Shown: positions 11,871-30,533 of the stretch, piece after piece
How the letters are laid out: each line of letters opens with the position of its first letter
Numbering within the stretch: position 1 is the stretch's first letter
Source: Prorocentrum cordatum
Lineage: Eukaryota
NCBI GenBank assembly: GCA_963575745.1
Contig: CAUYUJ010000334.1
Location: forward strand, 1 to 64,000
Length of the DNA stretch: 64,000 nt
Direction: 5' to 3'
Notes under the pieces: generated by a model
What the model saw: only the letters and a program-made list of their open reading frames with translations
What the model was told of the DNA's origin: nothing
Databases searched by the model: none
Program-made: the position numbers and the translations under genes

Positions 11871-12086
11871 TCAAAACAGTTTGAGCTGCTGGCCATTCTT
11901 GGGGTTCTTACCCGCCTTGATGGCCTTAATAGCATGCCTCTGCTTATACAGTGTGGGGGGGTGCTGAGAAGGGCCCAGGCAGCAGCCTCCAAGCTTCGAG
12001 TGCCCCGCACGCCCAGCATTAAGCTGGTACGACCCACACAACGTGCATACCATAGCACCAAGATTCGAGAGAATTCGGTGACCATC
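11871..12086 (-). CDS. LINE-A ORF2 C-terminal Cys/His domain, separated from the rest by the transposon
   Basis: Reads DGHRILSNLGAMVCTLCGSYQ...KLGGCCLGP...IKAGKNPKNG. Joins ...SDDIVEL (codon 24082-24080) in frame after excision. Confidence 0.85.
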   Translation of the reverse strand, partial: DGHRILSNLGAMVCTLCGSYQLNAGRAGHSKLGGCCLGPSQHPPTLYKQRHAIKAIKAGKNPKNGQQLKLF

Positions 12087-12295
12087 TACTTGAATCACCG
12101 CCCTCTTTGCTTTGCACTTGGTGCGCTTGTAAGTGGATGTATCTTGGCTTATAACATGCACAACGCAACTTACAAGTACGCTAACTTCGCAAGCAACCCA
12201 TCTATTCATATGCAAGTGCACATAAGCACATGGCGCGGTTATGTAACCGCTCGCGTCCCAGCAACCTGCTTTTAACATCTTAAGGGCAACACCAT

Positions 12296-12365
12296 CAAGT
12301 AGGTTAGTGTGGTTAGCACCAAACTGGTTAGCGAGGTTGGTAACCTGCTTAGGTAATCTGCTAAG
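12296..12365 (+). repeat. Left subterminal GGTTAG motif cluster of the transposon
   Basis: caagtaggttag, ggttagc and ggttagcg occur here, inverted relative to the CTAACC cluster near the right end. Confidence 0.6.
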
Positions 12366-12671
12366 TCCATTTACCCAGATGTGCAAATAACGGATTTCTA
12401 TGTTTGGTTCCGTGATTATGCTGATCCTCGGCGCGAAATCCATGTTGCTTTCTGCTGATTTGGATGTTCGCCAATGTGTTTTTTGTTTCTGATTTGGTGG
12501 AAACTGTTAATCGTTTCTGTGTTTCTCGAGGAAGTCACCGAAGTTCGGCCGCCAACAACCCTGCTGCCATCATCGCGTCGGTGCTATAGCCGTTTTAGCG
12601 GTTTTGCCTCATCCACATACCGTTCCCTTTGATACTTCGAGACGCATCGTGATTTTGAGTGTCCATCACGC

Positions 12672-14931
12672 ATGGCGTTGTTGGAAAAAATCGTGCAGTG
12701 AAGGCAGACATTGTAGCGATTATAGAATCCATTGACAATAGTGACGACGAGACGAAGGCAAAGCAGATGATTTCGAAAGCAGACAAAGTCATGGCAATTC
12801 TTATGCAACAAGGATTAGCTTATAGAGAGCGCATCCAGCCAGACAAAATCGGAGTGGATCCCGAAAATAGATTCGGCCAAGGGCTGGATCCAATGGACGT
12901 ACATGCGTTGGGGCTCGAGATATTATCTGATGGGTTTAGCGAAAAGATGACAACGAACGCTACGTGTTTCGAGGTGGACCCGAACAGCACACGTCAGTAC
13001 GATTTCAACAAAGAACTCAGCGACAGCTCGGACGGTATGATACCGTACATCGCCGCCCACGACTTGAGAGCGACCACCGTCACATGCAGCCACGCGACTG
13101 GTTTCATCAGAGCGGTGTTCCATGGTGCGAGTTCTGAGTTGGACGAGAAGTACACGACAGATGGGAAATTGTCGAAAGACAAGATAATTGCCGCCGACCC
13201 TGGGTTCAAAGATGTCTTGGAACGTGGCCTTATGTACTATGTCGTGCGGCATCAAGTCGCCAGCGAGATTCCTCTTGTGGCAAACTTTTTGTCTGAAGCT
13301 GGAAACGCAGCACACGGCGTCGAACGGACCCAAACCAAAATTCAAACTTTGCTGCAAATGCACACCCGTGCTGTGCGTGCCAGAAAAATGACAGGATCAT
13401 ATAAGTTGGATGGAATTGCAAGGTCTATTGAACAGGGGAAGCCTTATCTCAAAGGACAGGTGCGTGATATGGCAGATTACGTAATCAAGTGGGCAGGCGG
13501 CGAATATAAACCAATTTTCCTTCGTGATCTCGACGCGTTTTCGAAAACGCTACGAAGTCGGAAGGACATAAGTGGTCAGACATTCAAGTTGTTAGCTGGG
13601 ATAGACTACGCGTCGGCACCCGAATGTATCACATCTCTCATCAAAGCGAGTCTTGTTGCGCTCCAGACAGCCACACACATAATGGAACGTCCAAACTCGT
13701 GACCAGTGCCGACGCGGTCGTCTACACTGGGAAAGGTCGTAACTCGATTGAGAAGTTTATTGGTTATTTGAGAAAAGCGAAGACTTGGACATCCAACATC
13801 CCGAAAGACATGGATATCCCGCAGGCTACGATTGTCAAGACCCTCAGCGATGCAGAGGTGCGGGCTATCATGTGCATACACAACAAGCGTTCGAAGTCAA
13901 GGAAGCATTTCGAAAGCATCGATTCTGTTTTCCAAGAGTTTCTCAGCGACATGTTCAAACTCAAAGCTGAGTTGAAGGATCACAAGCCGTTGCCATGGGT
14001 ATACAAAGATCTTGCACCCGCGCAGCCTTGGAATACCGAGACTGTTCACATGAGGGAGTTCGGGGAGGCTGGATTGACCAAGAATTCTTTGGAGGCGATG
14101 GGTTTCAAAGTGGGGTCAATGGTAACGAAAACTAACGGACCTGATACAAGGTATGTGGTGGAATCTTGCACAGAGCAGAATGTCTCATTGAAGTCCGTTG
14201 CCATGGCTAAGGCTAAACCATTCAAAGTGCCGATTGGAAAAGTTGCAGACGAATACAAAGTTGTGCCGATTGAGGAATTATTTTCAATGGTCGTGAACGT
14301 CGAAAGTGCAAACGAGTTGGACCACCACGATATACAGATCGAATTGGGGGAATCCCGTGTGCGCGAAGCCCTCGCGCACACATACTATCGTACGGTTGGG
14401 ACGGTTTCTGTGAATCTAGCATGGGCCAACACCCCTAAACCGAGCGTGAGGGAGATGACCACGACTACATCATACGAGAAAGGTGCGTTGATCTTGGTTC
14501 CATTCTCGTCTGTAATTGGAGCGTCTAAAGAATGTCCTACCACGTCAGTCGCTCTCCGCACCCAAGGCGTTGCGCCCAAAGGCTACGAAGCATTTGTTTC
14601 TCCCAGGATCGAGCTCCCGAAGTTTGGTAAACCAAGCCCAGAGCAGTTTGTGGTTCCATATTGGTTGGTGCCGTTGGCGAAGCAAGGGAGCGCCGTCAAT
14701 CTCATTCACGGCGTCGTGAGGGTAAAGCTGCCTGTCGAGAGCGCCGTCCTCCATGATGGCCCTTACAACAAGGGTTCACAGTTTGCAGAGACCATCGTGG
14801 AGATTCCGATATTGTACAACTCTGTTGCGCTCAAGTCAGGGAAAGCTTTGTATCGCAGCGATAAGGCGGTCCCGAAGAGGCCCTCCGACGCTGCGAGCTC
14901 TGCCGCCGGTGTAAAGAATGTGAAGGCGTGA
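12672..14931 (+). pseudogene. Transposon cargo gene 1 (about 750 aa, frameshifted): ParB/Srx-like N-terminus, possible SH3-like and SET-like C-terminal regions
   Basis: Overlapping ORFs 12659..13702 and 13624..14931 join near 13655. Probable ATG at 12672 with a 1-nt indel in the A6 run at 12685-12690. Non-repetitive globular sequence with motifs IGVDPENRFGQG...GF...CFE...TCSHAT. Domain calls are by eye. Confidence 0.7.
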
Positions 14932-15919
14932 AGCCATCACCCAATGCATCCATGAACAATCTCTTCTCGCGAGCTCCCTCACAACGCACAGGGGTGGATA
15001 GAATTTAGGGGCAGGGGGCAAAACCAGGAGATCGTTGGGAACATCTGAGGTTTGTAAATATGTTAAGCTGTCCCCCCATCTGGTGCCCCGTCCTGCGGCC
15101 TGGCGCCCGCCCTGGCCACGTTGGTTCGAAGAAGCGCTCTCAAGTTGTTGGTTTTCAGCGCATCCAGTGTCCTCCTGGAGAATGACGCTAGACCCTCGCC
15201 CTCACCCCACCAAGCATCTCGATATATGTCGCCACGTTGTTAACGTGGTTGATTTGCGCGGCACCGCCGTCGCCGTTGTCGGCCTCAAGTTTTTCGTTGC
15301 CCCTGTGCCAGCCCGATACGTGAGGCCGCAATGCGTTCTGCTGAAGTATGGTCTTGTCTCCTCCCATCCTTCTCATTTCTCCTCGTCCTCGCCGCTCCTC
15401 CGAGGATTGCGCACCCCCCAAGAAGACGTCCCCAAGGGGGCCCAAGAGGCCCTAAAGATGCCCCAAAAAGGTTCCAAAGAGGCCCCAATACACCCACCCA
15501 AGGGCCCCCGATGTTACCCAAACGCAATAGACAAGTAGAAACGAGTAGACCAACAAAAATGAAACGAGTAAGACGGGTAAATCAAGCTAACACACACAAG
15601 CACACATTGTGAACGAATAAAAAACGCATGAAGCGGATGCAAAGAGTGAAACACATATAACGAGTTCTGTATCATCACACCACATATCATCATCACACTC
15701 ACCACACATCATACATCCCACGTGCATGCGGCCCAGCCCGAGCATTGTGCGATTGGGGTGTTGGCCCGAGCTGTGCTGTCCATGGTTTCTCTGCGTTTAT
15801 GTCCTGTGCTCACCACACATCATACATCCCACGAGCGTTGTGCGATTGGGGTGTTGGCCCGAGCTGTGCTGGCTCAAGCTTGCGCACCCCTCTGTATCTT
15901 GACTTGGCGCCTGAATCTC

Positions 15920-16424
15920 ATGGCACACCCCGCTCTGCTTGTGCAGGCGTTGGGCCTGCCATCGGCGCCCGATTCATACGAGCGCTTTCCCGACACAGTG
16001 GCAGAGTGGGAGCAGCAGCAAAGGGAGAAGGAGGAAGCGGAGGCAGCGAAGGGAGGAGCGATCGAGGTCCAAGAGAGCCCTGACGACGATGCGGGCGCAG
16101 ATCCTAGCTTGCCAGTCGCCGCAGCAGCTGAGAAGAGCCCGAGCGACGTAATGGGGGGCGACTCGGCCGCAACATCGGATGATGGCCCCATATGCACGCC
16201 CGCGCCTTCGCATCCCAGAGCTACGCACGCGGTCGAGAGCATGCGAGACATACGATGGCATCGAGAGCGTCGGCGATGACGTCAATGCGAAGGCGGTGTT
16301 CCAGGCCATGCTGAACAATCCTGTATCTACGCATAGCGACCCCATCAACAAAATGGTGAAGCGCAAGTTCCGTGTCCTTTACGAGATCGAGGAGATCTGG
16401 GTCAGCAGCTCCCAGAAGCCGTGA
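15920..16424 (+). pseudogene. Transposon cargo gene 2: small acidic protein, apparently frameshifted near 16230
   Basis: ATG at 15920 follows TGGCTCAAG (SL 3' end, 15870-15878). MAHPALLVQALG... continues in another frame as ...CETYDGIESVGDD...KRKFRVLYEIEEIWV. Confidence 0.5.
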
Positions 16425-16898
16425 GATGTCAAACTTTCTGGTGAAGCCCGTGCAGGGCGCTCAGCTCGCTATATTTATATAGTCTGGTCCATCTGCGGCC
16501 GCTGCCGCCATGCCCGTGGCGAACTTATCGGCTGCGCGCCCCCGACAAAATACATCATTATCATCATCGCCATCGTCATCACGAATTGCGTTGCGGCATC
16601 ACCATCATCATCATCATCATCATCACCATCACCATCCTCGTATCATCATCACCATCATCATCATCACCATCGCCACCATCATTACCATCATACCATCATC
16701 ACCATCATCATCACCACCATCATCATTATCATCAGCATCACCATCACCATCATATCTCATTGAGTTTTATTGTGGTATTTTGAACTGCGTTGCGTTGCAT
16801 TGTCCCAACAAGCGGAGCTGTGGTGGCACTAAGTCGCTGCCCTGGCGATAGCGTTGACGATGGAGTGGTGCGCAAGAGGGCGTGCTCGCATTCATGTC

Positions 16899-16921
16899 GC
16901 CGTAGCTGTTTTGGGCTCGAG
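16899..16921 (+). other. Relict spliced leader upstream of cargo gene 3
   Basis: gccgtagctgttttgggctcgag. A second, more decayed copy (taagctgattttcggactcaa) lies directly before the ATG at 16977. Confidence 0.7.
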
Positions 16922-16976
16922 CCGTCGAGTGAGATTTATAGCACAAGCTCGGACTTAAGCTGATTTTCGGACTCAA

Positions 16977-17729
16977 ATGCCGCTCACCCTTCGCCGTGAG
17001 TGCGTCGTCATTTCCAGCGACCGAGATCAGGGCATCAATGGGAGCTGGGTTGCCAGGGTTGTCGAGCGCAATGGCGCGGAGTTCGTTGTGCCCAACCGCT
17101 CGGACCACAAATGCGTGAAGCTGTTGAAGAATAACTTCGGCATGGTGGCTGAATTGAAGCGCCTCCGCAACGAGAAGGTAACTGAACTAATGCAGGACAT
17201 CGAGCGCGCGGCGGACGAGATGGCGGACGCCGAGGAGGATAGCGATACTGGTGGGCCTCGCCTCAAACGCTCTCGGAGGCAGCTGGCCGACGAAATCAGC
17301 GAAGTCATTGAGCTTGACGTACAGGACACCTTCGAGAACTGGCACAAAGTCAGAGTGTTACGTGCCGCTGATGAGGGGGCGCTACTCCACTTGGAGCTCA
17401 CCGTCGACAACATCAACCTCCTCCACAACGCTCCAATGCCCCGTGATCAGCCACTGTTCCGCCCGAGTGTCAACGATAAGAACATCAAGTGGATCTCTTC
17501 TCGGAATACTTTGAGGCTCAGTTACTTCGACATGGCAAGCCAGAGGTGGAAGGTGAAATCCATGAAGATCAAGTTCTCGTCTGACTACGCCGCGATGCAG
17601 GACCGCGTCGACAAGACGGTGAAAGTCTTGCAGACATTCTTCCAGGAGCACCACGGCGTCCACATCGACCCTGGCATCGCAGAGGCAGAGGAGGACGGAG
17701 GCGAAGACGCTGATGTCGCAATGGAGTGA
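16977..17729 (+). CDS. Transposon cargo gene 3: intact 250-aa protein of unknown function, possible AP2-like C-terminal domain
   Basis: Clean ATG-to-TGA ORF with high GC3 codon bias, preceded by a relict SL at 16899-16921. C-terminus NIKWISSRNTLRLSY...WKVKSMKI followed by a helix. Confidence 0.8.
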   Translation: MPLTLRRECVVISSDRDQGINGSWVARVVERNGAEFVVPNRSDHKCVKLLKNNFGMVAELKRLRNEKVTELMQDIERAADEMADAEEDSDTGGPRLKRSRRQLADEISEVIELDVQDTFENWHKVRVLRAADEGALLHLELTVDNINLLHNAPMPRDQPLFRPSVNDKNIKWISSRNTLRLSYFDMASQRWKVKSMKIKFSSDYAAMQDRVDKTVKVLQTFFQEHHGVHIDPGIAEAEEDGGEDADVAME

Positions 17730-18067
17730 GCTATAGGGTCGCGGGCACATACGTTCGGCGGTGGGGGCGCTTGGCGTATACACGAGAGTCGGGTTTTGCA
17801 AGCGCGACCAGTGGCAGTCTGTCCTATGCATAGCAGGCCTGTCGCATCGGGGCATGCATCGCAGGTGCTGGCGCACGGGCGGTCACGGTCGAAACGTATC
17901 GCACAATTGTGCGCGTACTAGCGAAATGCACAGCATATCGTTGAACAAACAACACCAACACCATCGCCACAAGTGCTCTCGGCATCATCCGCATGGTCAT
18001 CAGCATCGTCTTTAGGAGCGATCTCGTCGTCGTCGTTTCCCGCCTCGGCGGGGCGAGCGAACAAGCG

Positions 18068-18254
18068 CGAACTTCATATAGCGAGCCCGACGTAAAAGCA
18101 CGAGCTCGCTATAGCGAGCCCGCGCAAATGCACGGGCTTCAAAACGTAACATAGGTGCCTGAGGCACCTATGTTGGACTTTTAAGCCCGTGCACTTGCGC
18201 GAGCTCGCTATAGCGAGCTCGTGCTTTTACGTCGAGCTCTCTATATGAAGTTCG
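18068..18254. repeat. 187-bp near-perfect palindrome (foldback)
   Basis: Arms cgaacttcatatag...aacataggtgcct and aggcacctatgtt...ctatatgaagttcg are symmetric about 18161. Confidence 0.92.
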
Positions 18255-18805
18255 TGTTTCTGGGGGGCGGCCTCGGAAGCGCCAGATCTGTCGGGCCAAG
18301 GGCGGCTGTTCGACGGCGTAGACGACGTCGTGAATGACGATGTCCTCCTCCCCCCCCTCCCGTCGGGCCCCAAGTTGGCCTAAGTAGGGGTCCCAAAAAA
18401 GAGCCCCGAGGCGGCCGCCAGGCCCTAAGTTGACCGACATGGAGATCCAAACAACGAGCCCCAAGGAGGCCGCCGAGCCCCAAGTTGACCGAAGTATAGA
18501 TCCCGCAAACGAGCCCCAAGGCGGCCGCTGAGCCCCAAGTTGACCAAAGTAGAGATCCCAAGCACGAACCCCAAGTGCGGGGTTGGCGTGCTGAAGGTCC
18601 CTCGTCCTCCTCCTTCCCTCCTCCCTCTTCCTTCCCTCCTCCTCCTAGGGGGTCCCCGACGAACCTTCCCCCGCTATAGCATCCCCTCATCCTTTGTACC
18701 CTCGCCTGTCATTTCGCGGGGGGGAGGATTCCCATTTTTGTTCCTGGGCCTCGTCCTCAGGAGAGGCCCAGGGACAAAAATGGGAATCCTCCTCCTCCTC
18801 CATCC

Positions 18806-18826
18806 CCGTAGCCATTTTGGCTTAGG
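18806..18826 (+). other. Relict spliced leader upstream of cargo gene 4
   Basis: ccgtagccattttggcttagg, 19/21 match to DinoSL, preceded by a short TCC tract. Confidence 0.9.
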
Positions 18827-18886
18827 CAGGTTTGCGAGCTTGCAGTACAGGCACAACGACGGTTGGCTGCACTCACGATTGGCGCA

Positions 18887-20419
18887 ATGGCTTCGGCGCA
18901 TAGCGCGATCGTCACGGCACTTCAGCATCGGGTTCAGTTTGTCACTGCCCAAGCGGCGACTACAGGGACCCCCGTCGGCTCGATGCTAGACGCGCAGTTG
19001 CAGGCGATGTTGGTCCAGATTCAGCAGGCGACTGGGATCGCGCTCCAGGGGGGGACCGAGATCATGAACGAGGTAGGCCGTGGCCCGTGGACAGTAGAAC
19101 ACAGGCAGGCCTTCTCTATTGCCGTGAGCAATAACATTGCGGCGCCCGTCGCGCGGTCGACTCGTCCTACCCAGAAGTGCAGTGCCATCCGCAACTTCTT
19201 CACGGAAGGCGATTGGGCGATCTTCGAGAGCAGCCAGCTGACCGAAGAGCCGAAGCTGCAGGCGATGGCGAAGAGGCTTTCCATGCTCGGCATCGCGTGC
19301 CCATGCGAGAAGCTCTTGATGTCGGCATGCGCGTTGCTGGTCATGAAGGGCGACCTCCCGCCGAAGGACCACGCTCAGAAACGCGAAATGTGCCACAACC
19401 TGTCGAAGCTGATCAAGATGCACGACAAGACGACTACATGGCCGTTCACCTACATCACGAACTACATGGACAGCCCCCTGACCTTGCCTCCAGAGATTTA
19501 TGCCCACGCATACGGCGCCGACAAGCCCTGTCCACCACCCCCACCGTTCGAGACGTCGGTCTACAACGATGCCGTCTTGGGAATGTGCTACAGGTCCAAC
19601 CACACTGGCGTGTCGGGCAGCAAGAAATCCCCTAGCACCTCACTTGCTGTTCCGACCGCAGGCGCATTGCAGCAGCATCATCAACAAGTTGACGTGATGC
19701 AGATGTGCATGGGGATGATGGGCGCGATGATGCAGCGCATGGGGGTGACGCCGACTGGAGCAGACAACGTCAACGACGGCGGCATCAACCTTACAATGCT
19801 GAAGGGCGGCGCGGCTTCTCCCAAGTCTTCGGCACCCTCTCATACGTTGAGTGCAGAGACTCTGTCTCTGGGGGGTTCGCTCAAGGAACCGATGCCAGCA
19901 CCCCCCGCGCCAGCAGAGCCCGCGAAGACCGCGGCGGCCGCGGTTGATGAGGCCAAGGAGCTCGAGAGGAAGATGGTCGCATCTGCCCGGGCCGTCGGCC
20001 ATCCCACCGCTGCTTCGCAGGTAGGCGGCAAGCGCAAGGCGGCAGGGCATGCCGACGGCGCCGCCGACGGCGCCGCCGACGGCGACTCGGCTCCGGAGGC
20101 CCGGGCCAAAGGCAAGGCCAATGCAAAGGGCAAGGGCAAGGCCAAGGCAAAAGCTAAGGCCAAAGCAACAGCTTCCAAGGCCAAAGCCAAAGCCGCTGCC
20201 GCAGGTGGGCCATGCATCATCAAGCATGGCAAGTTCACGGCCGACATCTCGCATCTCTTGACGCCCGAGCTTGCAAAGGGCTGCATCCCGAAGAACTTCA
20301 AGTGCAAGGCTTACGACCGCGCGAAGTACCTATCTCAGCAGGCGGGGTTGGGCAGTTCCGCTCAGACATCGGTTGCTCAGATGGCTTATGCCAAAGCAGC
20401 CGAGTACCTCGCGGCCTGA
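18887..20419 (+). CDS. Transposon cargo gene 4: intact 510-aa protein with K/A-rich (histone H1-like) tract and basic helical C-terminus
   Basis: ATG at 18887, 60 nt after a near-perfect SL (18806-18826). Strong codon bias. Contains AKGKANAKGKGKAKAKAKAKA and KNFKCKAYDRAK...AYAKA. Confidence 0.82.
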   Translation: MASAHSAIVTALQHRVQFVTAQAATTGTPVGSMLDAQLQAMLVQIQQATGIALQGGTEIMNEVGRGPWTVEHRQAFSIAVSNNIAAPVARSTRPTQKCSAIRNFFTEGDWAIFESSQLTEEPKLQAMAKRLSMLGIACPCEKLLMSACALLVMKGDLPPKDHAQKREMCHNLSKLIKMHDKTTTWPFTYITNYMDSPLTLPPEIYAHAYGADKPCPPPPPFETSVYNDAVLGMCYRSNHTGVSGSKKSPSTSLAVPTAGALQQHHQQVDVMQMCMGMMGAMMQRMGVTPTGADNVNDGGINLTMLKGGAASPKSSAPSHTLSAETLSLGGSLKEPMPAPPAPAEPAKTAAAAVDEAKELERKMVASARAVGHPTAASQVGGKRKAAGHADGAADGAADGDSAPEARAKGKANAKGKGKAKAKAKAKATASKAKAKAAAAGGPCIIKHGKFTADISHLLTPELAKGCIPKNFKCKAYDRAKYLSQQAGLGSSAQTSVAQMAYAKAAEYLAA

Positions 20420-21214
20420 GTGGAAGCATGCTTCTACAGTCTCTTTCTCTCTGCCCCTTCGCAGTGGGGCTGCGGTCGGGCCATGCGCACTATAGTACAC
20501 TCTACTCGTGGGCTGTCAGAGGGCCCAATGAAACGCCCTCGCTCTACTCCGCTGGCACCAGCCAACTCCGACCGAATGGACGGCGAACTCGCTCTACTCC
20601 GCTGGCACCAGCCAACTCCGACCGAATCCCCCCTTGGGACAGCTGGGAGGTTTCTTGGGCTGTCTTGGAGGCCATCTTGAGGCCATGTTAGGCCGTCTGC
20701 TTCGTAGGCCGTCTTTAAAACATGTTGTGGCCATCTTGGCGGTCTTGGAGGCCATCTTGGGCGTCTTGCAGGCCTCTTGGGCCGTCCTTGGTAAATATTA
20801 TGGCGCATGATGTTATATATGTATATATACATGTATGTGTGTATATAGACATACATACAAACAAACTTGCGTACGTGCCTGCATGCATACATACATTCAT
20901 TTTCAGGCCCCCAGCGTGAGTATCTACAGCAAGAGCCCCCATGTGCACTCTTCGGGCCTTATGAGACTCCTTTTGGATCCTTCTTGGGCCCTTAGCTTGG
21001 AGATCTACCATGTATATGATAGGTGTTCGTGGAGATGTACCCTGTATATGATAAGTGTTCGTGTGCGAGTGGAATGCAAGGAAGTCTCGAGCTGGAGCTC
21101 GATCATGGGCTTCTCTTAGAGCCCCCAGAGGGGGGCTACGGATTGGCGTCAGCCCACGTGAAATGAAATTTCCTCCCCGCCCATCCTCGCACCCAAACCC
21201 CAAACTCCTCCAAT

Positions 21215-21239
21215 TCCGTCAGCCATTTTGGCCCTCGAG
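21215..21239 (+). other. Relict spliced leader upstream of the transposase
   Basis: tccgtcagccattttggccctcgag is DinoSL with small insertions and one substitution, 13 nt before the ATG. Confidence 0.8.
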
Positions 21240-21252
21240 GTTTTCTTCACAC

Positions 21253-23252
21253 ATGCAGAAGCGCCTTCGGTTGACCGAATGCGGTAAATATAGTTTCGTG
21301 ACTGCTAGAGGCATCGAGCGATTGCTGCAGCAGGTGAGGGATGAAGGCCTGCCCGACGCGTTTTCGGCAGCCACCCAGGCGAGAAAGCGCAAAGAAATCG
21401 CCCACCAGGCGACTTCACATGGCCCCCTCTTGCGCCGAGTGGCGGCGGTGTCTATAGATGGAAAGGAGGTGGATCTGTGGTTTCAAGACCCTCTCGCGTT
21501 CTTGGGGTGTGCGTGCAGTCGGTCTCCACACTACGCATCGATGATCACAAAGGCCCTCGATGCCAACGGTAACTCACTCTCGATCCTTATCTATTCCGAT
21601 GAGGTCACTCCTGGCAACGTGCTAGCAGAGCATAATGACCGAAAGGTACAAGCACTGTGTTGGTCATTCAAAGAACTGGGATACCCAGCACTCTCTAATG
21701 AGATTTCATGGAACAAAATATGCGCTATCCGCAGCTCTGTGGTCAACAGTCTCCCTGGAGGCCTCTCGGAGGTTTGCATTTTTTTTTATTTTTATTTTTA
21801 TTTTTTTTCGTTCGGAGCGCCCGCGGGAAAGGACCTTCGACGAGGAGTGCCTTTCAAGATAGGTGCAGACGGTGAACAGCGATTGATTGTAGGCAAGCTT
21901 GCAGTGATGATACAGGACGAAAGAGCACATACATTCCCATTTCAGTGCAAGGGTGCTGGAGGACACAAACTGTGTTGTCTTTGCATGAACGCGACCGATC
22001 TGAAGTCCGCCCTGTTGCCCGACCCCACGGGGTTCTTGGTTGCCTCGGGCGTCGTCGACGTGTCGCAGTTCCAGCCCCGCACTGGAAGCAACATCCGAGG
22101 CACCCAGCGCCGACTTCATGAAGTTGCAAATGAAGGCGGTCGGAAGGACAAGCTAACAGATCTCCAGTCTTTACTTGGTTTCAATTATACGCCAACTGGC
22201 GTGTTGGCAGACGAAGAGTTAGATGTAAACCTTCCAGATGTTTTTTTTCAATGGGACTGGATGCATTGCTACATGGTTGGAGGGGTCTTCGTAAAGGAAG
22301 GGGAACAATTGCTCCAGCGTCTGCACGCACATGGGCTGGGCGTGCGTGCGCTCCATGAGTATCTCCAGCACTGGCAGTGGCCGCTTGGATACAGCCACGC
22401 GAAACAAACATGTAGCAAGAAGAAGATGGGCGGTAGTGCATCGGAGCTCATGTCGCTGGCGCCCGTACTTGGAAGGTTCGTGGTGGAGGTAGTTCCTGGT
22501 GGAGTGTGTCCGCTTGAAGTTGAATCGTGCTTGGCCCTCGTCCGTGTTGTTGGGTTGCTCCCAGTTGTCAACAGCGGGCAAGTTTCAGCGATCGAGCTCG
22601 GGGAGTCGATCGCTAGGCATTTGGCTTTACACAAGCGTGCATACGGAGTAGAGGCGTGGTCTCTACTCCGTATCTTCGGAAACACACCATATTGTTGTCA
22701 TGCTTCCTAATGGAAAGGAAACATAAGGTCATCAAGACCATGGCCCAGCCACGTAGGAATACACGATCATATGATCAAAACTTGTTAGAGGAGTGCACTG
22801 TGTTTCACTTGTTCCAGTTGGAACACCACGCGATCGAAGGCGTGGATTTGCTTGGGCCGAAGGCTCCGAGCAAGGAGCTGCTCGCAGAAATTGGTAGTCT
22901 GTTTCCTTCGGTTGATTTGCATGACGCGGTGGCGTCAAAGTCAGCCCACGTGCACTGCAGAGCTGTGCAGATCGGCGATTGCGTTTCATATATCACGTCA
23001 AACAATAGCCTTTGTTTTGGCGTGGTGTTGGTGCATTGCAAAGTGCAGGTGGTGATGCTCACTTTCGTTTCTATGTGGGACGTGATCGATGTCGGAGCAG
23101 AGTGCGCGAAATGCACCGTGCAGGATCGTGCCTGCATTGTCCGCAGCGAAGCAATTGTCGAGCCTTGTATATATTGGCCAACGAAGGTTGGCTCAATCAG
23201 CACTGTGATTCTTTCTCCAAGACTGCAACAGAGGGTCTTTCGGCACGCATGA
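21253..23252 (+). pseudogene. DDE transposase, CMC (CACTA/Mirage)/Plavaka-like, disrupted near 22660
   Basis: Motifs ILIYSDEVTPGN...RK, IQDERA, GAGGHKLCCLC, WDWMH (DxxH), and SCFLMERKHK in the second ORF (22656..23252). ATG at 21253 follows a relict SL. Confidence 0.78.
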
Positions 23253-23923
23253 ATGTGATGCGCACTTCTGTGGTAAAAGCTTTCGCTTTTATTCGGCGGC
23301 TTCCGCCAGCACCGACCTCTGTCTTCACAATCCGCCTGCCTCCCCTCCCTAACCTCCTCCGCCCTTTCTCTTACTCCTCGCACCTCCTCCCCTCCCTTCC
23401 CCCTCTCTCCTCGCCCTCTCGCCCCCTCCTTCCGCTGAGGCTTTCCCTTCGGTAGGCGCTCGGCATCAGAGGACCTCCGAAGACCTCAGAGGACCTCGTT
23501 CCACGGACGCCCGAATCGTCAAGGAGACAGGCGTGAGAACTAACACTTTGAGCCACCGTAGGTTTCTATCCGATTTGAGTTGCCTGCCTGGGGCCTCTTG
23601 TTGGGGCCTCCTGGAGCCACGTTGGGGCCATCTTGGAGCGCGTTGAGCCATCGTGAGCCTTCTTCGGGGCTTCTGAACCACGTCACCAAGACCTCAGAGG
23701 CCCTCCTTCCGCGGCCGCCCGAAAATGTTCAAGGTCAACCGCGGCCTCCCAAAACCGAAAACATCGCATACCCCCATCGTGCACCGACAACAAGATTTGC
23801 TTCACGGTTTACATGTATTTTTCTAGCTTTACTTCCAAATCCAGGGGCAACGAAGTAAGATTTTTCAAAACGAACAAAGACATCCAAAGAAATCATCATC
23901 CACTGTATGGTTTAGCGTGCTCG

Positions 23924-24024
23924 GGCTAACCTACTTAGACGGGGGGGCTAACCTAGTTAGCTAACCTACTTGGCTAAGCTACTTGGACGGCTTGCTAACC
24001 TACGTTAGCTACGGGGCCTAACCC
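23924..24024 (-). repeat. Right subterminal (G)CTAACCTA(C) motif cluster of the transposon
   Basis: About six copies of gctaaccta-like units. ctaacctacttg is the reverse complement of caagtaggttag at 12296. Confidence 0.65.
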
Positions 24025-24079
24025 CGCGCAAGAAGATAGAACCCAGTCAACCATAAAGGAACCACCGCGGTGATTCAAG

Positions 24080-27000
24080 TAACTCTACAATATCATCTGA
24101 AACAGGCAGCTGAGCCCCCGACGGACCAGGAACCACAGGGTCTTCGGGCGGGCTGAGCTCCTGCGCCAAACCTAGCGCAACGTCGACCGCCTCGCTCCTG
24201 TACGGCCGTGCACGCTGCAATGCGACATCGTTGCGGGCCTGGAGCTTCTGTTGCTCCGTGGGCTCACACTTAGCATAATTACTGGTCCCCGCCACGAGTT
24301 TCAACAAACTGGCTGGGGTCCGAGCCGTGGCCAAACAGATCTTGCACTGCCAGACCCCAGGGCTACGGACGACCACCTCGTGCACACGCAATCCTACCTG
24401 CTGTGCAGGAATCGGGGGGGCACCTAACTTGAGCCTCTCGGGTCTACAGCTGGTGGAGTCCCTGGTGATGAGCTTTGCTGCCGCCCAGGAGAAGAACTTT
24501 GCATTCAACTTCTCTTGACTCAGCCTGGCTTCGAACATTTTGACCGTCGATTTGTGTACTGCATGCATGTTGCCCCCCTCTCGAGCGACAAAGTCAGCCC
24601 ACATGTTTCCGAGCAGAAATTCGAATGGGAGGGTGTCGAAGTGTACCTCCAGGTAACTCTCGATCGTAATGTGCGCGGGCGTCCAGCAAGCTCTGGGCCG
24701 ACGCTTGTCGTCATCAGCATGAAAGATGTGCCTCCAGATGTCCGCGTATGTCGAATTCGCATCTTCCTGGTCGTGGTGCCAGGAATTCACTTCAGCTGCC
24801 AGGCTCTGGAGATCTGTCACCAGTAGGTCCACAGCTGGTAAAAGCCTGAGTGTCATGAGGAAAGCCATTCGCTCCGATCTCCCGACCGTCTGGATCGGAC
24901 CCTCAATGGGCTCATAAGCAGCACGAATAGGCAGCCCGTTGTCCCCCATGACGACGAACGACCACCCACATCGACGAATCTCAGGCCACGCTGGGGCCAG
25001 CCCCGAACCATCTGAGAACACCATTGAGCTCCAGGACCTTCTGTCAGACTCCCAGTCACCCCAGCAGACGTACTGCAACTTGGACTCCACATAAGGTGGG
25101 ATGAGAGGGCTCACAGGTATGCCTACTGCCGTGGCAAAACAATCCCAGTCGGGCTCTCCAAGGGCCTTTTGTCCGAGCTCCCTTAGCATATCATATGTGT
25201 ACTGCATATCAGTATTCCAGTCGAGATCGGGCTCTTCAGGCGAGTCGTCATAAAAACTAGGACAGCAAAAGAACTCGTGTCCAATGGTCGATTGCTCCGC
25301 TGCGCAGTAGATGCAAGCAGGGGGGATCTGGTACCCTTTGGCAGCCAGTCTGGAACGTGACCAAATAGAGTCAGACCACAGTGCACGCAGCGCGCCTGCA
25401 AATCGTGGGTTCGTGACCACTGCCTTCTTAGCTCCAACACATCTTCTCATTGCTCCCATCCATATGACCTCATCCCCATAACAAACCTCCTTGTGATGTG
25501 TAAGTATGCGCATGCCTTGCCAGCGCTCGATGCCTTGCCTGATCAACTCCAGCACGTCCTTGGGACAGAGCTGGAGGAGGTCAAAAGTGTGACCAAGGTC
25601 GCTGTAGATCCCCGTGGCGGAATACATGCCCCATCCTATTCTCCTCAAAGACATCCATACAACGGCAATGGGACCCCTTGCAGAGGTCCAAGTAGCCTTC
25701 TTCTTGAGCCCCTCATCAACCTTCATCCAAGCCCGCTGTAGTCTCCCAAGGCAAACTCTGTTGTCCCAAACGAAGCTGCAGTATGCCTTCAGGGGGTCCA
25801 TAGTGGCATTGTATATTGGGTCGTACTTGGCGTCAGCCTGCGTAGCCAGATATACAGTGAGAGAGGAAACTGCCGTCGAGCGGCCACATAACATGCCAGC
25901 AACAGAGCGTAAACGAGCAAGCTCTTGGTCACTGACTCCTGATACAGTCGCGCCATGCGCAGCAGCAGGAATGAGTCCTGTTCTCCAGGTCGCGGTGACT
26001 CTGTTGCCAGCCGCCTTCTGGAGCATAATAAGCCTTGTGGGCCTGTCCTGCAATCCCTCCATCCTAGCCTTAGCTGGTTTTCTCACAGGAACTGGCCCAC
26101 TAAGTTCATGCCCAAGATTTCGGACCCACTTCTTGCCTTTGAGGTTGATCCTGGAGGCCAGCTTGCGGAACTCATGGTGCCCCTTCCTAGTGTTGGAGAC
26201 CCAGCCCGATTTCTTGACCTGCAGCAGGAGCCCCAACTTGGCCGAATCCTTGACGAAGCTCTGGGCCCCCAAGAACAACTCAGCCGAAGAAGTCCCCGAC
26301 GGCCCAACCCATTGGACCGTGCTGTCATCCACGAGCGCTCTCGGGGTCACGTTGGGGGCTATCTGGTGCACCTTCATGAGGGCCCTGTAGGTGAGGATGG
26401 TGAGGAGGGTGGTGGCGTGGGTGCAGCCCGCGAGGATGCCCTGGTACACCACAACCTGCTTGCTCCAACATCCAAAAGCCTTTATTACCCTTGGCTGGGA
26501 ATACGAATTGATTAGCATCCATAACAAACGTAGCGGGAACCCCAGGCACCTGGCTTCATCTACCAATGCAGGGAACAGCACCGTCTCGAAACATTTCCAC
26601 ATGTCGAGAAAAACCGTGACTGAACTCTCTCCCAGAGAAGCAGCAATCTCCGCCTCCAGGTTGTGCGCACATGCAGAGTAACTGGAAGAGTGTCCCCGCC
26701 GATTGCCCCAAACGAACGGGCTCCCATGCTGGGCAATCCATGTTCTTGAAATCGGGCGCCTTGCGCGCGCCCACAAACGTACTAAGCTCTCTACTCGAGT
26801 GATCAGCCGCGTGCCTCCATCGGGCTTGGCAAGCCTAACCATCTCATTGACTACTCTCTGTGTCGGCCAGTACAACATCCGCTCGCATGTGTGGTGCAGT
26901 GTGCAGAGCGCCAACAAACCAGCGTCAGAGAGGAAGAAGAAGACGCGAAGATGCAGCCTCGTCGGCCCAGTGGCAGTCGTCCACTTGAACGTGAGGGCCG

Positions 27001-28405
27001 CCTTGGACAGGTCTTCAGGCCGAAGAGGAGGAATATTATCCCATGAATGCGCATCACTAGGCAGTACTGGCTCCCCCTGACCGTGACAAGACCATACCTC
27101 ATGCCAGGCATCCATTTCCCTGTCGGCCATCTGGTACGGCTGCATTCTGTCGGTGTGCGCCACTGCTGCCTCCAGCGCCTTGACCTTGGACGTGCGATGC
27201 GCAGGGCCTGCACCTTTCTTGAATGCCGTGTCGACCCACGACTTCCAGCTAGCCTCCACCTTCTTTTTATGCACTTGGTGGAATTCATCTGCATGCTCGA
27301 CGATACGGTAGATCTGCTGCTCGAAGTCGTCCCTTCCTAGCAAGGCTATGCCATCTAGGAAGAAGTTCTGAGTCTCCTCATCCAGGTGATTCATCATGTG
27401 GTTCTGCTGCCCCACTATCTTGAGCAAGAAGCGATCTGTGTCCACCAGCGAACGAGCCAATCTATCAATGGGATTCTGACTCGCTGATACTCGCCGCTTC
27501 CTGGAATGCGTTCTGCCAGGATTCCTTGGATCCTCGCGTGGCATCGAGGCTGACGCATTAGCCGCGGTCGCCGAAGTAGTACCCGTAGGCCCTCTACCAG
27601 GGGCATAGACAGCACAGGCCGAAGACGCAGATCGCGGCGCCATCGACCCTCCAGCGATCCCACCGCACGGGGTCACTGAGCTGAGAGCCGCGGGCATGCG
27701 CGGATCAGCATAGGACACGCGCCGCGGGGCAGCCTCGTCCTTCATAGGGCGTAGGCGGCATGACCCACTCGTAGATGCCCTCTGTGAACTCGAAGAGACA
27801 GGCGCTTGTATGTCATGTATGTCACCTGCTACGCGTTGTATGCAAGGTATGGGTACACCGTCGCTCGCCTTCGAACTGTTCCTTCTGCTGGTGACCGTCG
27901 TCCAGTTTTCATCTGCTTCGTCTCTCATGGGAGCTGCGGCAGCAGGTGCCATGGAAGGCTGTCGGCTGGACCAGGGCGAACTGTAGTCAGGAAGGTGAAA
28001 CTCACCCGCCCGCCTATCATCACGTACAGCTTCCTGCGCCAACTTGATCCAGAAGGCTCGCACTCTCATAAGATGCTTCGCCCATCTGGTCGCAGCCTGC
28101 CAAGCTAAGGCCGTCGGCCCAAGAGCTCCCGCCTCCCACTTGGGGGTCCAGTGTGCTTCGACAAACTTGGTGTCTCTCGGGCCCGCTCTGCCCCTGAATG
28201 GAGCCGCATCATCGTCGACCACGTCGTATCTGTTGAGAATCTCAAATTCCACTCCAGTAATGACTGCGTCCCAAGCCATCCTTAGCGTGTCGTCGTCATG
28301 AGCACGTAGAATGGTGTCCATCACTTGATCCCAATTCATTGGAAATCGCGAACAACCTTGCTTGGGTAGCTCTGGTAGCTGCTTGGGCTCAACAGGGACC
28401 CTCAG
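24080..28405 (-). CDS. LINE-A ORF2, reverse transcriptase + RNase H portion
   Basis: RT motifs LAKPDGGTRLI, FLDMWKCFETV, QGILAGC, ALVDDS, RNLG. RNase H motifs FSDGSG, QTVGRSE, TDLQSL, WTPAH, GNMWADFVA. Also CxxC motifs (CIYC...HEFFCC; WQCKIC). Open in frame from just after the TGA at 28406-28408 down to the transposon junction at 24080. Confidence 0.93.
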
Positions 28406-29131
28406 TCAGATTTGCTTGGGCACTGCTCGAATCGAGAGAGCCACAGGCGCATGCGTGGGTAGCCCTGCTGCAGCCAACACATCTGGTGGCTCAATGATGG
28501 CAGCCAGATTGGAGTGGACCAGGAAATAATCATAAATCTTGCCCTCGACGGAGTTGGTGGTGCGACAGGTGACTTGCGAAGGTACCATCATCAACGCATT
28601 AGTCTGCGCCACCCACTCCTGTGAACCAATCAAATTCGCACTCATATTAAAGTCACCTCCAATGACCCAAGGCCGATTGGCGGCATTGAGGCGGCCCACG
28701 TACTGCGCCACCTTGTGGAGAACCATAAGGTTGTAGTCATTCAAGTCAACGGAGTCCTGCAAGTAGAGGGAGATGACAACCAACCCGCTCTTCAGGCCCC
28801 AGTTGACCTGCGCTGCCACAGCCCGAGAGGGCGCAATCTCAGGGTCCTTGAGCAGAGGTGGCGCCGTAACCGTGATATAGCTCGGCGTGATCACTGCAAC
28901 CCCAGCTGATAGCCCGTCAGCTGCCGTGCGCTTGGCCGCCGAGAAGATGCCGTGGTAGCCCATGCACTTGAGCTTGTACTGCAAGCTGGGCAGCATCAGG
29001 CCATCTGACTTATGCTCTTGAACCAGTATCACGGCATCTGTGGCCTGCTCCACATGACGTAGCAAAGGGCCAGCTGCATCAGAATTGACCGTAACGATCT
29101 GCCCCTTGATCTTAGAATCGGAACTCGCCAT
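28406..29131 (-). CDS. LINE-A ORF2, APE (exo/endo/phosphatase) endonuclease domain; ends at a single in-frame TGA
   Basis: Motifs VTVNS, ILVQEH, SAGVAV, ISLYL, IGGDFN, IYDYFLV, THAPV. Same frame as the 24047..28339 ORF. Confidence 0.88.
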   Translation of the reverse strand: MASSDSKIKGQIVTVNSDAAGPLLRHVEQATDAVILVQEHKSDGLMLPSLQYKLKCMGYHGIFSAAKRTAADGLSAGVAVITPSYITVTAPPLLKDPEIAPSRAVAAQVNWGLKSGLVVISLYLQDSVDLNDYNLMVLHKVAQYVGRLNAANRPWVIGGDFNMSANLIGSQEWVAQTNALMMVPSQVTCRTTNSVEGKIYDYFLVHSNLAAIIEPPDVLAAAGLPTHAPVALSIRAVPKQI

Positions 29132-29180
29132 CTTAACCAGAAAAGTGAACATCATCATGACATGGATTAGCCTCCTAGGC

Positions 29181-30317
29181 CTAGTAGGCCTGGAAACCTG
29201 GCCCCTTCCTCTGCTTGGCATGCTGCTCCAGCTTGCAGAGTCGGTTGGCTGCACTACGCATCTCCTCCAAGGTCGTGGGCACCTCCTGACCCGCCTCCGC
29301 CAGGTAAGGCCGCAAGACTTCTTCGGTTGCTTCCTTGATAGGCACCAGAGGGACATCATCATCAGCAATTGACTCATTGTCCAGCAGCTCAGGAATCGCC
29401 TGATGTCTAGGCGCACCCACAGGTTGCAACCGAGCATTCGTGATGATTTGTGGCAGTGCTTGAGCCACTCCGTGCGCGATGGCGTCAGTCCTGTCACCAG
29501 CTCCGAGGGCGCGCAAGACCTCGCCCAACTTGGTGGTATCAAGGCCCAGAGCTTGAACAGTCTGCCCAGACTCCCCGTCATCATTAGGTACAGGTGGGAC
29601 ATAGCTCTGACGCGCCAAGTCCGCGTGCTGGGTCTGGAGCTCGAGCAGCTTGGCCTTCTTGTCCAGCACCTTCTGCTCTGCCTGCGCCAGCACCTCCTGG
29701 AGCTCCTTGATGACCGCCTTCTGGTCCTCAACGTCCTTCTCCGCTTTGGCAATTTGCTTGCCCATAGCTTCAATCTGCTTGCCAACGACGAACATGCGTG
29801 AGGCGGCAGGCTTGTGCTTGTTAGTCTCTCCCTGGAGCTCGCTGCGTTCTTTGGTGAGCGCCTCCTTGAGAACGTCCCAGGCTGCGCCCACACCTTTGCT
29901 GGCGACAGCGATCTCCTTATCCAGCTCCAAAATACGTGCACGAAACTTGCCTTCATCGAAATCATTTCCCATAGCCTTTGGCTCCGACACGTCCGTGGCA
30001 TCAGGCGCTGGCACGTACTTGGCCTGGACTTGCTTCTCCAGCTTGGCGATCGTCTCCTGCGCCAAGCGCAGCTGCTTGGCCACCTCCCACGGTGCCGAGC
30101 CAGAGCTGGTGGCTTTCTTGCCACCTCCCTTGAGACCTCCAGCGTGCACGCTCGGGTCTGTGGTGGACTGCTTGTAGGCCTTGAAGCAACTGCTTTTGGG
30201 ACGCCTGCACGGGAAGCATGTTGTTCTGTCGGCCTTATTGAAGAAAGGTTCGCCCGTGCGCTCGTGGATGCAGGTCTTGCACAGCCAAGTCTTGTCGGCG
30301 ACTGGGCGTGGCACCAT
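29181..30317 (-). CDS. LINE-A ORF1 (378 aa): N-terminal RanBP2-like zinc finger and long coiled coil
   Basis: ATG at 30317. Motif WLCKTC...FFNKADRTTCFPCRRPK (W-x-C-x2-C...N...C-x2-C). E/K/A/Q-rich heptads follow. Lies immediately upstream of ORF2. Confidence 0.8.
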   Translation of the reverse strand: MVPRPVADKTWLCKTCIHERTGEPFFNKADRTTCFPCRRPKSSCFKAYKQSTTDPSVHAGGLKGGGKKATSSGSAPWEVAKQLRLAQETIAKLEKQVQAKYVPAPDATDVSEPKAMGNDFDEGKFRARILELDKEIAVASKGVGAAWDVLKEALTKERSELQGETNKHKPAASRMFVVGKQIEAMGKQIAKAEKDVEDQKAVIKELQEVLAQAEQKVLDKKAKLLELQTQHADLARQSYVPPVPNDDGESGQTVQALGLDTTKLGEVLRALGAGDRTDAIAHGVAQALPQIITNARLQPVGAPRHQAIPELLDNESIADDDVPLVPIKEATEEVLRPYLAEAGQEVPTTLEEMRSAANRLCKLEQHAKQRKGPGFQAY

Positions 30318-30511
30318 CCTGCCCTCACAACGCACACGAGGAACAAGAGCACAATACACGAGGCAGAGAGGCCCCGAGTATGCTGGGATGAGAGAAGCGC
30401 GCCGAGATGGGGCGGACCACCTCGGCGCTCGCCCTGGGGCTGACCAGGGGAAGGACTGCAAACTGGCCGCGGACTAGCGGTATCCACTCGTTCCCCTGCG
30501 GAACAAAGCAT

Positions 30512-30533
30512 CTTGAGCCAAAATGGCTACGGA
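30512..30533 (-). other. Exact dinoflagellate spliced-leader sequence (22 nt) at the 5' end of LINE-A
   Basis: The + strand reads cttgagccaaaatggctacgga, the reverse complement of TCCGTAGCCATTTTGGCTCAAG, matching the DinoSL consensus DCCGTAGCCATTTTGGCTCAAG. Confidence 0.97.

Follow-up and report, generated by a model that had tools for sequence, protein, structure and literature searches.

A window of 64,000 nucleotides from the dinoflagellate Prorocentrum cordatum (assembly GCA_963575745.1, contig CAUYUJ010000334.1, positions 1 to 64,000 of the forward strand) contains a DNA transposon of the cut-and-paste type with five genes on the same strand, designated g1 to g5, of which g5 codes for the transposase. 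Upstream of all five genes, sequences resembling the dinoflagellate spliced leader (SL) were identified, and those of g3, g4, and g5 are certain to be SL relics, far beyond chance. A relict SL is the standard tag of a dinoflagellate retrogene; here, the tag is found on every gene of a transposon and travels as DNA. The explanation favored in this paper is that trans-spliced mRNAs of the element re-entered element copies as cDNA, that the relics were then carried along with the element, and that they probably act as splice-acceptor cassettes. This combined reading is given an even chance of being correct.

SL Relics Upstream of the Transposon Genes

The whole window was searched with the 21-nt core of the dinoflagellate SL (DinoSL), as given in parts of PMC8045281 and PMC7245778; the full SL comprises 22 nt. 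Only two sites matched with at most three mismatches. The plus-strand site, 18806-18826, has 19/21 (the value already reported in the initial annotation of this sequence), and the minus-strand site, 30512-30532, has 21/21; 100 shuffles gave an expectation of 0.00. A gapped scan with the whole SL (match +2, mismatch -2, gap -3) resulted in scores of 34 for g4, 29 for g5, 27 for g3, 21 for g2, and less than 18 for g1. The plus-strand sites with a score of at least 21 are 18806-18826 (34), 21215-21239 (29), 16899-16921 (27), 15265-15289 (24), 38950-38974 (23), and 15854-15878 (21). Scored against shuffled controls (40 Markov shuffles), five sites of at least 24 were observed on both strands of the 64 kb versus 0.025 expected, and eight sites of at least 21 versus 1.3 expected. 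The sites at 15265-15289 and 38950-38974 were absent from the initial annotation, and the latter is located outside the element.

The best local alignments to the SL in the leaders of g1, g2, g3, g4, and g5 score 20, 21, 27, 34, and 31, all on the sense strand, and end 62, 43, 56, 61, and 14 nt before the respective ATG. As a background, 1280 windows of 160 nt were taken from both strands of the same 64 kb, excluding the element itself and the surroundings of the SL of a neighboring long interspersed nuclear element (LINE). In comparison to these, the p value is 0.019 for g1, 0.010 for g2, and below 0.0008 for each of g3, g4, and g5; for the five leaders jointly, a combined p of 3.5e-9 was obtained by Fisher's method. 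The initial annotation had claimed SL-like sequence shortly upstream of each gene, and the five strings cited for this were all found in place (Table 1).

A chance resemblance has to be considered in DNA which is GC-rich (about 55-65% in the window) and contains many microsatellites and other repeats; for the genome of Prorocentrum cordatum, a GC content of 59.7% is given in part of PMC10666404, in agreement with the window. The leaders of g1 and g2 taken alone reach p values of 0.01-0.02, a local score of at least 20 occurs in 0.96% of windows of shuffled sequence, and one window in a coding region of the element itself attains a local score of 25. For g3, g4, and g5, however, chance is refuted, since none of the 1280 background windows reached 27, 31, or 34, a score of 27 was reached by none of 19,660 shuffled windows, and no core match with up to three mismatches is expected. 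As an account of the whole set, chance is extremely improbable.

The relics in the window are unevenly decayed, with 2 to about 8 changes per 21 nt. This had been taken initially as a sign of stepwise capture of the genes; by a Poisson estimate, however, the range fits a single age. The 5' part of the SL-like match before g2 falls within a duplicated 40-mer. A second decayed copy had been described between the g3 relic and the ATG; the match itself is present, but it is weak. Directly before the g4 relic, (TCC)5-ATCC is found at 18787-18805, which resembles the (TCC)n-SL junction of the neighboring LINE, the two forming an inverted-repeat pair; an endonuclease-mediated insertion, a microhomology at a 5' junction, or slippage could each account for it.

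The Transposon and Its Relatives

The five genes are enclosed by perfect terminal inverted repeats (TIRs), for which a BLAST E value of 0.002 was obtained with 1.8 x 1.1 kb searched, and a local score of 30, above the highest value in 200 shuffles (27). Inverted arrays of subterminal repeats lie inside of both ends. TA is present at both ends of the window element and of its relative L013, followed by CTTGAA in the former and by CTGAGA in the latter, while the five bases outside each end differ (CCATC/ACTCT in the window, GATGA/GGCCA in L013). In two further relatives, L015 and L016, the outer two bases are TT and TG, and at least the next 14 are conserved. Judged from these ends, the outer TA may be a 2-bp target-site duplication, a reading weakened by the palindromic nature of TA and by the number of complete elements, which is two. 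The copy in the window is dead, being decayed and non-autonomous; it carries at least four frame-breaking lesions.

The description as a DNA transposon with a transposase, made originally from the letters alone, was borne out by the TIRs, the subterminal arrays, and the RAG1/Transib-like fold predicted for g5. A different interpretation of the GGTTAG/CTAACC arrays and the terminal 15-mer, as two opposed LINE 3' ends, was tried and rejected, since the region 11800-12450 aligned with the LINE 3' end only at the 15-mer and related arrays are located inside the TIRs of L013.

In a scan of metagenomes with an alignment of g5, 33 loci were identified, designated by L-numbers. L013 (13 kb) contains five plus-strand open reading frames (ORFs) of 703, 219, 245, 593, and 701 aa. 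An inverted repeat of 27 nt (25/27), located at 528-554 and 12295-12321, encloses the unit, with GCTAACC/CTTAGC arrays within both ends and a sharp change in composition to GC-richer DNA outside; its end sequence is also present in L015 and L016. ORF1 is similar to g1 (E 8e-18) and ORF5 to g5 (E 1.6e-46, 28% identical), and ORF4 matches the N-terminal domain of g4 (hhalign probability 97.4%, E 9e-12, 209 columns). Homologues of g4 are also found directly 5' of the transposase in L002, L003, and L005 (E of about 1e-19 to 1e-21). ORF2 and ORF3 gave nothing significant in the window by tblastn, nor did g3 against ORF3 by BLASTP; by size, however, similar ORFs occupy the slots of g2 and g3. Since collinear homologues in the same order and on the same strand are present in L013, g1, g4, and g5 are ancestral to the family. 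The TIRs and this conserved synteny exclude that five host genes were independently retroposed side by side.

In another relative, L014, the right end of the element stops after the first subterminal repeat (at about 6367, within L014:6367-8836). An SL-like sequence at 6506-6526 (score 30) follows, located 75 nt 5' of an ORF of 744 aa which has no Pfam match. Apparently, an SL-tagged gene landed in the element end or replaced it.

The initial annotation had favored a stepwise capture, in which host retrogenes were gained one by one, each with its own SL relic. It was correct in that g1 is AT-richer than g4 (GC of 49-51% versus 61.6%), and the GC content at third codon positions (GC3) is host-like in g2 to g4 (74-75%) in comparison to g1 and g5 (53-60%). 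The lack of detectable homology between g3 and the corresponding L013 ORF, and of any significant counterpart of L013 ORF2 and ORF3 in the window, would also suit a capture, and the ORF in L014 indicates that genes with an SL can enter elements of this kind, here at the expected right end. However, a GC difference does not imply capture, as the lowest GC3 of all is that of the transposase, not only in the window, but also in L013 (47% versus 55-65%) and in L002 (65% versus 70%). The transposase bears a relic, yet it cannot be a captured host gene. Furthermore, g1, g4, and g5 share 22-28% protein identity with their collinear orthologues in L013, the remaining slots there are taken by ORFs of similar size, and poly(A) tracts are missing. 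Capture is contradicted for g1, g4, and g5; by sequence comparison, it is possible for g2 and g3, to which it is limited, and as a general explanation it is improbable.

The Neighboring LINE and the Timing of the Insertion

The transposon appears to have landed in ORF2 of the LINE-like retrotransposon on the minus strand. When it was removed in silico, the frame continued for 71 codons to 11871 with 2 nt kept and for about 90 open codons with 1 nt kept, so that the frame does not discriminate between the two. The putative tail of 71 aa has no Pfam match, and neither the window nor the metagenome loci yielded a further copy of the LINE with which it could be compared.

A perfect SL of 22 nt (30512-30533, 22/22) abuts the ATG of the LINE ORF1 and is preceded by (TCC)n, which implies that the LINE was retrotransposed from a trans-spliced mRNA. 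From this intact SL and the long open ORFs, it follows that decay at the locus since the arrival of the LINE has been slight. The frameshifts of the transposon and the decay of its relics would therefore be older than the insertion at this site, and the relics would therefore have been present in the element already when it moved as DNA. In addition, (GGA)n/(TCC)n tracts are located at the 5' junction of the LINE (30531-30596) and about 125 nt past the putative end of ORF2 (11609-11746). This hints at an insertion of the LINE into a (GGA)n/(TCC)n microsatellite, but may be due to chance, as the window contains 37 tracts of at least five units.

SL Relics in Related Elements

Of the 33 metagenome loci, 18 were used, and leaders were tested there at 24 gene starts; the other 15, with partial or broken ORFs, were excluded. 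Nine of the 24 leaders are at or above the 95th percentile of 2908 background windows, and these nine belong to three of about ten lineage groups, as grouped here, namely, L010-L016, L007/L008, and L017. In L013-L016, the best SL alignment ends 61 nt before the ATG of the transposase and lies within a tandem array of TGCTCAAGCATTTG, which is present 3.3 times at L013:9852-9897 (96% matches) and agrees with the 3'-terminal 14 nt of the SL at 12 positions. L010 and L011 contain a shorter array and, further upstream, a relic of nearly full length, CGTAGCCAATATATGGATTCGAG.

According to parts of PMC3229502 and PMC12014239, tandem relics truncated at the AG of the SL arise when mRNAs are trans-spliced, reverse-transcribed, and re-integrated repeatedly. 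Interpreted by this pattern, the tandem relics in L013-L016 would be the signature of repeated recycling. The initial annotation had proposed that the element was "assembled, or serially refreshed" from retroposed mRNAs. A refreshing has become plausible through the tandem relics of this distant subfamily, but a stepwise assembly is unsupported, with g1, g4, and g5 syntenic in L013.

Within this array in the leader of the transposase, a block of 25 nt, TATCAGyTGCTCAAGCATTTGTGCT, is identical in 24/25, 24/25, and 25/25 positions among L013, L015, and L011, in comparison to 37-47% identity in the flanking leader between L011 and L013/L015 (block versus flanks, Fisher p = 4.6e-7). The transposases of these three elements are 83-94% identical, and at four-fold degenerate sites the identity of L013 and L011 is 71% (133/188). 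This suggests that selection retains the relic block in L010-L016. The earlier idea that the relics act as built-in acceptor or expression signals thereby gains support.

Proposed Origin and Role of the Relics

That genomic SL relics derive from re-integrated trans-spliced mRNA, as had been assumed from the start, is in agreement with parts of PMC3229502 and PMC7245778. In the model proposed here, the mRNAs of the element would receive the 22-nt SL by trans-splicing like those of host genes. Some of the mature mRNAs would be reverse-transcribed, presumably by the reverse transcriptase (RT) of LINEs such as the SL-headed neighbor, which places an RT source together with an SL-capped template directly next to the element. 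The cDNA would then recombine into element copies, so that a full SL comes to lie before the 5' untranslated region (UTR). From there on, the relics would be carried by DNA transposition rather than being made at this locus. Recombination is invoked because the lack of a poly(A) remnant makes a simple endonuclease-primed insertion of whole mRNAs unlikely.

For the role of the relics, it is relevant that the SL contains an internal AG (CCGTAG/CC), which, according to part of PMC3229502, is used as the acceptor when trans-splicing occurs again; each relic is thus a ready-made acceptor. It would represent a portable acceptor cassette, by which each gene of a promoter-poor multigene element could be cut from read-through transcripts at any landing site, and this use is proposed as the reason why relics persist upstream of the genes. 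We infer both the re-entry by recombination and the acceptor function from the observations described above.

The same re-entry of cDNA could also have left functionless relics which merely decay as neutral scars. The uneven decay within a dead copy would be consistent with this, as would the missing relic 5' of the transposase in most of the related lineage groups, and, in part of PMC3229502, relics are reported for 22-25% of dinoflagellate full-length ESTs (expressed sequence tags) with no function being proposed. However, the relic block is identical in 24-25 of 25 positions, in comparison to 71% at four-fold sites and 37-47% in the flanks, and in the window, the distance between the SL-like match and the ATG is no more than 62 nt for all five genes. 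The neutral alternative is considered unlikely, although it carries more weight than the other rivals.

In another alternative, the relics would stem from SL RNA genes by direct copying of DNA or would be evolved mimics, in either case with no cDNA step. The g5 relic is directly followed by GT (CTCGAG, then GTTTTC), as is the SL exon, and a poly(A) trace is missing, both of which would suit such copying. However, no Rfam match was obtained at the gathering score in the whole window, and no shared intron-like sequence was seen after the relics, which lead into leaders and ATGs. The tandem truncated units of L013, too, fit the published pattern of cDNA recycling. Copying at the DNA level is judged to be quite improbable, slightly more so than capture.

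Several points weigh against the combined reading of cDNA re-entry and acceptor function. The matches of g1 and g2 are marginal by themselves and are credible only by their position. Among the related elements, 7 of the 10 lineage groups have no recognizable SL signal 5' of the transposase (L001-L003, L004, L005, L006, L009, L023, L024). The suggestion that all five L013 genes bear relics was dropped, since the leaders of g1 to g4 in this element have no significant likeness to the SL (p 0.14-0.48). The conservation of the block in comparison to the neutral identity of 71% has a p of about 0.002 (binomial) and concerns two to three sublineages of one subfamily. A second copy of the window element was found neither in the window nor in the metagenome loci, so that one copy was read. 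No poly(A) remnant is present, with 0 windows of at least 12 A in 15 nt across 12087-24081, so that the second of the common hallmarks of retroposition is lacking. Finally, the (TCC)5 before the g4 relic, with its resemblance to the 5' junction of the LINE, could point to an endonuclease-mediated insertion rather than to recombination.

Features of the Element and Its Surroundings

Table 1: Positions of the transposon, its genes, the SL-like sites, and the adjacent LINE in the window of 64,000 nt.
Feature	Position	Strand	Remarks
Possible continuation of LINE ORF2 beyond the transposon	11871..12086	-	71 codons if 2 nt are kept
Whole DNA transposon	12087..24081	+	11,995 bp; five same-strand genes; 15-nt perfect inverted repeats; size and gene order as in L013:528-12321
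Left TIR, TACTTGAATCACCGC	12087..12101	+	15/15 complementary to 24067-24081
Left subterminal repeats	12296..12345	+	GGTTAG x3; CAAGTAGGTTAG unit; 3/4 of the GGTTAG in the window
Weak SL-like match before g1	12596..12611	+	13/16 ungapped; local score 20; <18 in the whole-SL scan
g1, accessory protein of about 750 aa	12673..14931	+	ParB-N-like N-terminus, SET/PR-like C-terminus (predicted); homologous to L013 ORF 1037-3148 (E 8e-18)
SL-like site in the g1-g2 spacer	15265..15289	+	no evident ORF behind; gapped score 24
SL-like match before g2	15854..15878	+	16/21, one gap, exact TGGCTCAAG at the end; score 21
g2, small acidic protein	15921..16425	+	from three-frame translation; GC3 74%; no family found
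SL relic before g3	16899..16921	+	full length, 3 mismatches, 1 inserted base; score 27
Possible second, strongly decayed relic touching the g3 ATG	16950..16976	+	weak; 14 bases, 2 gaps, local score 18
g3, intact ORF of 250 aa, family unrecognized	16977..17729	+	one homologue, 69% identical
Best-kept SL relic, before g4	18806..18826	+	19/21; after (TCC)5
g4, intact ORF of 510 aa	18887..20419	+	N-terminal domain conserved across the element family
SL relic before the transposase gene g5	21215..21239	+	TCCGT-C-AGCCATTTTGGC, then CCTCGAG; score 29-31
g5, DDE transposase with predicted RAG1/Transib-like fold and C-terminal BAH domain	21253..23252	+	from fold of family model and motifs
Right subterminal repeats	23925..24023	-	CTAACC x5, at 23926-24023; inverted in comparison to the left array
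LINE-like retrotransposon	24047..30533	-	ORF1 701 aa (endonuclease-like), ORF2 1430 aa (RT and zf-RVT matches)
Right TIR	24067..24081	-	within the final 11 codons of LINE ORF2 (minus-strand frame)

The g5 gene in the window is damaged by a T-rich replacement at 21775-21815, by the loss of the PKxHxxxH motif, and by a frameshift near 22690. Its relatives have 640-730 aa and share the motifs YxDEVTPGN, QDERA, KGAxGxKxCxLC, DWMH, PKxHxxxH, and ERKH; in an alignment of 20 sequences, D121, D224, E504, C243, C246, and H482 are invariant and H486 is nearly so. With the same alignment, the structure of the intact relative P0002 from Prorocentrum cordatum (43-44% identical) was modeled, with a pLDDT of 82.9 and a pTM of 0.84. 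Foldseek returned 47 PDB chains at E ≤0.001, and among the matches listed, all are RAG1, amphioxus RAG1-like, or Helicoverpa Transib (best E 2e-7). By VIA-align, Z scores of 17.8 for RAG1 (441 aligned, rmsd 4.9), 16.3 for BbRAGL, 15.8 for HzTransib, and 12.4 for the P element transposase were obtained; the alignments to RAG1, RAGL, and Transib comprise 398-453 residues and cover residues 23-552 of the model. Residues 544-664 were aligned to BAH domains with Z of 10-12. On the basis of this model, g5 is predicted to be a transposase, with RAG1/Transib as the nearest solved fold.

At the sequence level, no Pfam family was matched at E ≤0.1 by three members of the g5 family, no RAG1 or Transib chain at E ≤10 by the g5 profile among the PDB sequences, and no relative was identified in viral contigs by profile search. 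P0002 is labeled "RNA-directed RNA polymerase" in UniRef; since its predicted fold is RAG1/Transib-like with a BAH domain, this name looks like a misannotation. The EukProt entries P0003, P0005, and P0010, which are relatives of the transposase with 43-50% identity, are assigned to a transcriptome of Pyramimonas sp. Two explanations are conceivable: the family reaches the green algae, or this data set contains dinoflagellate sequence.

The start of g1 at 12673 was set by comparison with the L013 homologue, after which the frame slips in an A-run; frameshifts are located near 12686-12691 and near 13650. The g1 family comprises 2111 representatives at E ≤0.001. In the family model (pLDDT 89.8), the C-terminus is predicted to be SET/PR-like (Z 10.7, 113 aligned), and the N-terminus was aligned to ParB-N (Z 8.0, 211 aligned), a resemblance which is only a lead, since a Z at this level is commonly met. 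For g1, nothing relevant was found among PDB sequences with its profile, and no relative in viral contigs by a single-protein search sensitive to close relatives only. The frame of g2 probably shifts near 16245. For g4, proteins with 94% and 86% identity are annotated in Prorocentrum cordatum. No Pfam family was identified for g1 to g5 or for their homologues in L013 and L002, and the protein atlas contained no usable match for g3 or for the N-terminal domain of g4. The genes appear without introns, g3 and g4 being single ORFs and relatives of g1, g4, and g5 being full-length single ORFs in at least 14 loci; transposon genes are often intron-free anyway.

The spacers of the element contain further repeats. 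Between g3 and g4, near-perfect palindromes are located at 18063-18259 (98-nt arms, 89% complementary, 1 nt apart) and at 18720-18795 (about 38 nt, followed closely by the (TCC)5 and the relic), and the spacer between g2 and g3 contains a long imperfect (CAT/CAC)n tract with a His-rich frame at 16550-16760. A satellite-like repeat of 11 nt, similar to CTTGGGGGCCT, is found at 10846-11044, 15423-15485, 20633-20791, and 54.5-57.4 kb, that is, in the flanks and in two spacers of the element. Host-type simple repeats have entered the spacers of the element.

Comparison with Known Systems

Retrogenes with relict DinoSL, or "recycled" cDNAs, are well established (Slamovits and Keeling 2008, as cited in parts of PMC3229502 and PMC7245778). 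In comparison to those described in PMC3229502, PMC7245778, PMC5585692 (Song et al. 2017), and PMC12014239, the genes analyzed here are similar in having a genomic SL shortly 5' of an intron-free coding sequence, in relics of full length, which come first, in the tandem truncated relics of a relative, and in the LINE RT as the presumed agent. They are different in being genes of a class II transposon, including the transposase, with relics that lie between TIRs and move as DNA and with no trace of poly(A). In the literature searched, no report of relics on DNA transposon genes was found, and the passages of PMC3229502 covered are silent on them. A count of the terms transposase, transposon, transposable, gene conversion, and homologous recombination gave 0 for the text of PMC5585692, as did a count of transposase and transposon for that of PMC12014239, with the supplementary tables of both outside this scope; such supplements could list transposase-like retrogenes. 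A similar case are the endogenous dinoRNAV elements, where relict dinoSL was found within 500 bp of 6 of 26 RdRp ORFs and was read as LINE-mediated retroposition (part of PMC10235124). There, too, foreign or selfish genes are tagged by a relict SL, but these are fragments of RNA viruses with no mobility of their own, unlike the transposon with TIRs presented here.

Since the tag travels as DNA with the transposon, a relic near a gene need not mark a local retroposition, and surveys of retrogenes based on relics will count transposon cargo as well. The case also offers a testable answer to the question of how a multigene selfish element expresses each of its genes under polycistronic transcription and trans-splicing. 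The element is also notable in itself for a transposase family with no home in Pfam, a BAH domain similar to chromatin readers, and a largest accessory protein whose family comprises over 2000 representative clusters in public data.

With Transib, RAG1, and ProtoRAG, the transposase shares its predicted fold (Z 15.8-17.8), and the spacing of the conserved D/D/E and C/H residues appears to resemble that of the catalytic DDE residues and the zinc ligands of RAG1. Transib elements have a target duplication of 5 bp and ends with a CAC-type heptamer. Unlike Transib and RAG1, the element described here has TA flanks of 2 nt, TIRs starting with CTTGAA or CTGAGA, four accessory genes, and a C-terminal BAH domain; no match of sequence profiles was obtained, and no RAG2-like gene was recognized. 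By title, no publication on Transib in dinoflagellates was found.

Elements of the CACTA/Mirage/Chapaev (CMC) group are large and contain accessory genes, arrays of subterminal repeats, and a D-x2-H motif; their target duplications are short (2 bp in Mirage). To our knowledge, no structure of a CMC transposase has been solved, so that these enzymes could not appear in the fold searches. The window element resembles this group in its accessory genes, its subterminal arrays, a D-x2-H motif (DWMH), and a short putative duplication; it differs from it in having no Pfam match at E ≤0.1, and so none to CACTA/KDZ models, if these are in the library.

In a wider reading, which is tentative and less probable than the combined reading given above, these five-gene transposons of about 12 kb might constitute an undescribed group at the superfamily level which is widespread in marine dinoflagellates, with a BAH transposase of RAG1/Transib fold, a ParB-like/SET-like protein, and three more proteins. 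Their genes would be rewritten periodically from trans-spliced mRNAs by way of LINE RT, and the relics would be selected as acceptor cassettes for expression from the polycistronic transcription of the host at any site. On this wider reading, the long-term maintenance of a class II element would include an RNA-mediated step that is obligatory. Compared to the systems described above, the transposon family apparently is undescribed and abundant, and relics on the genes of a transposon apparently are what it adds to the known SL relics.

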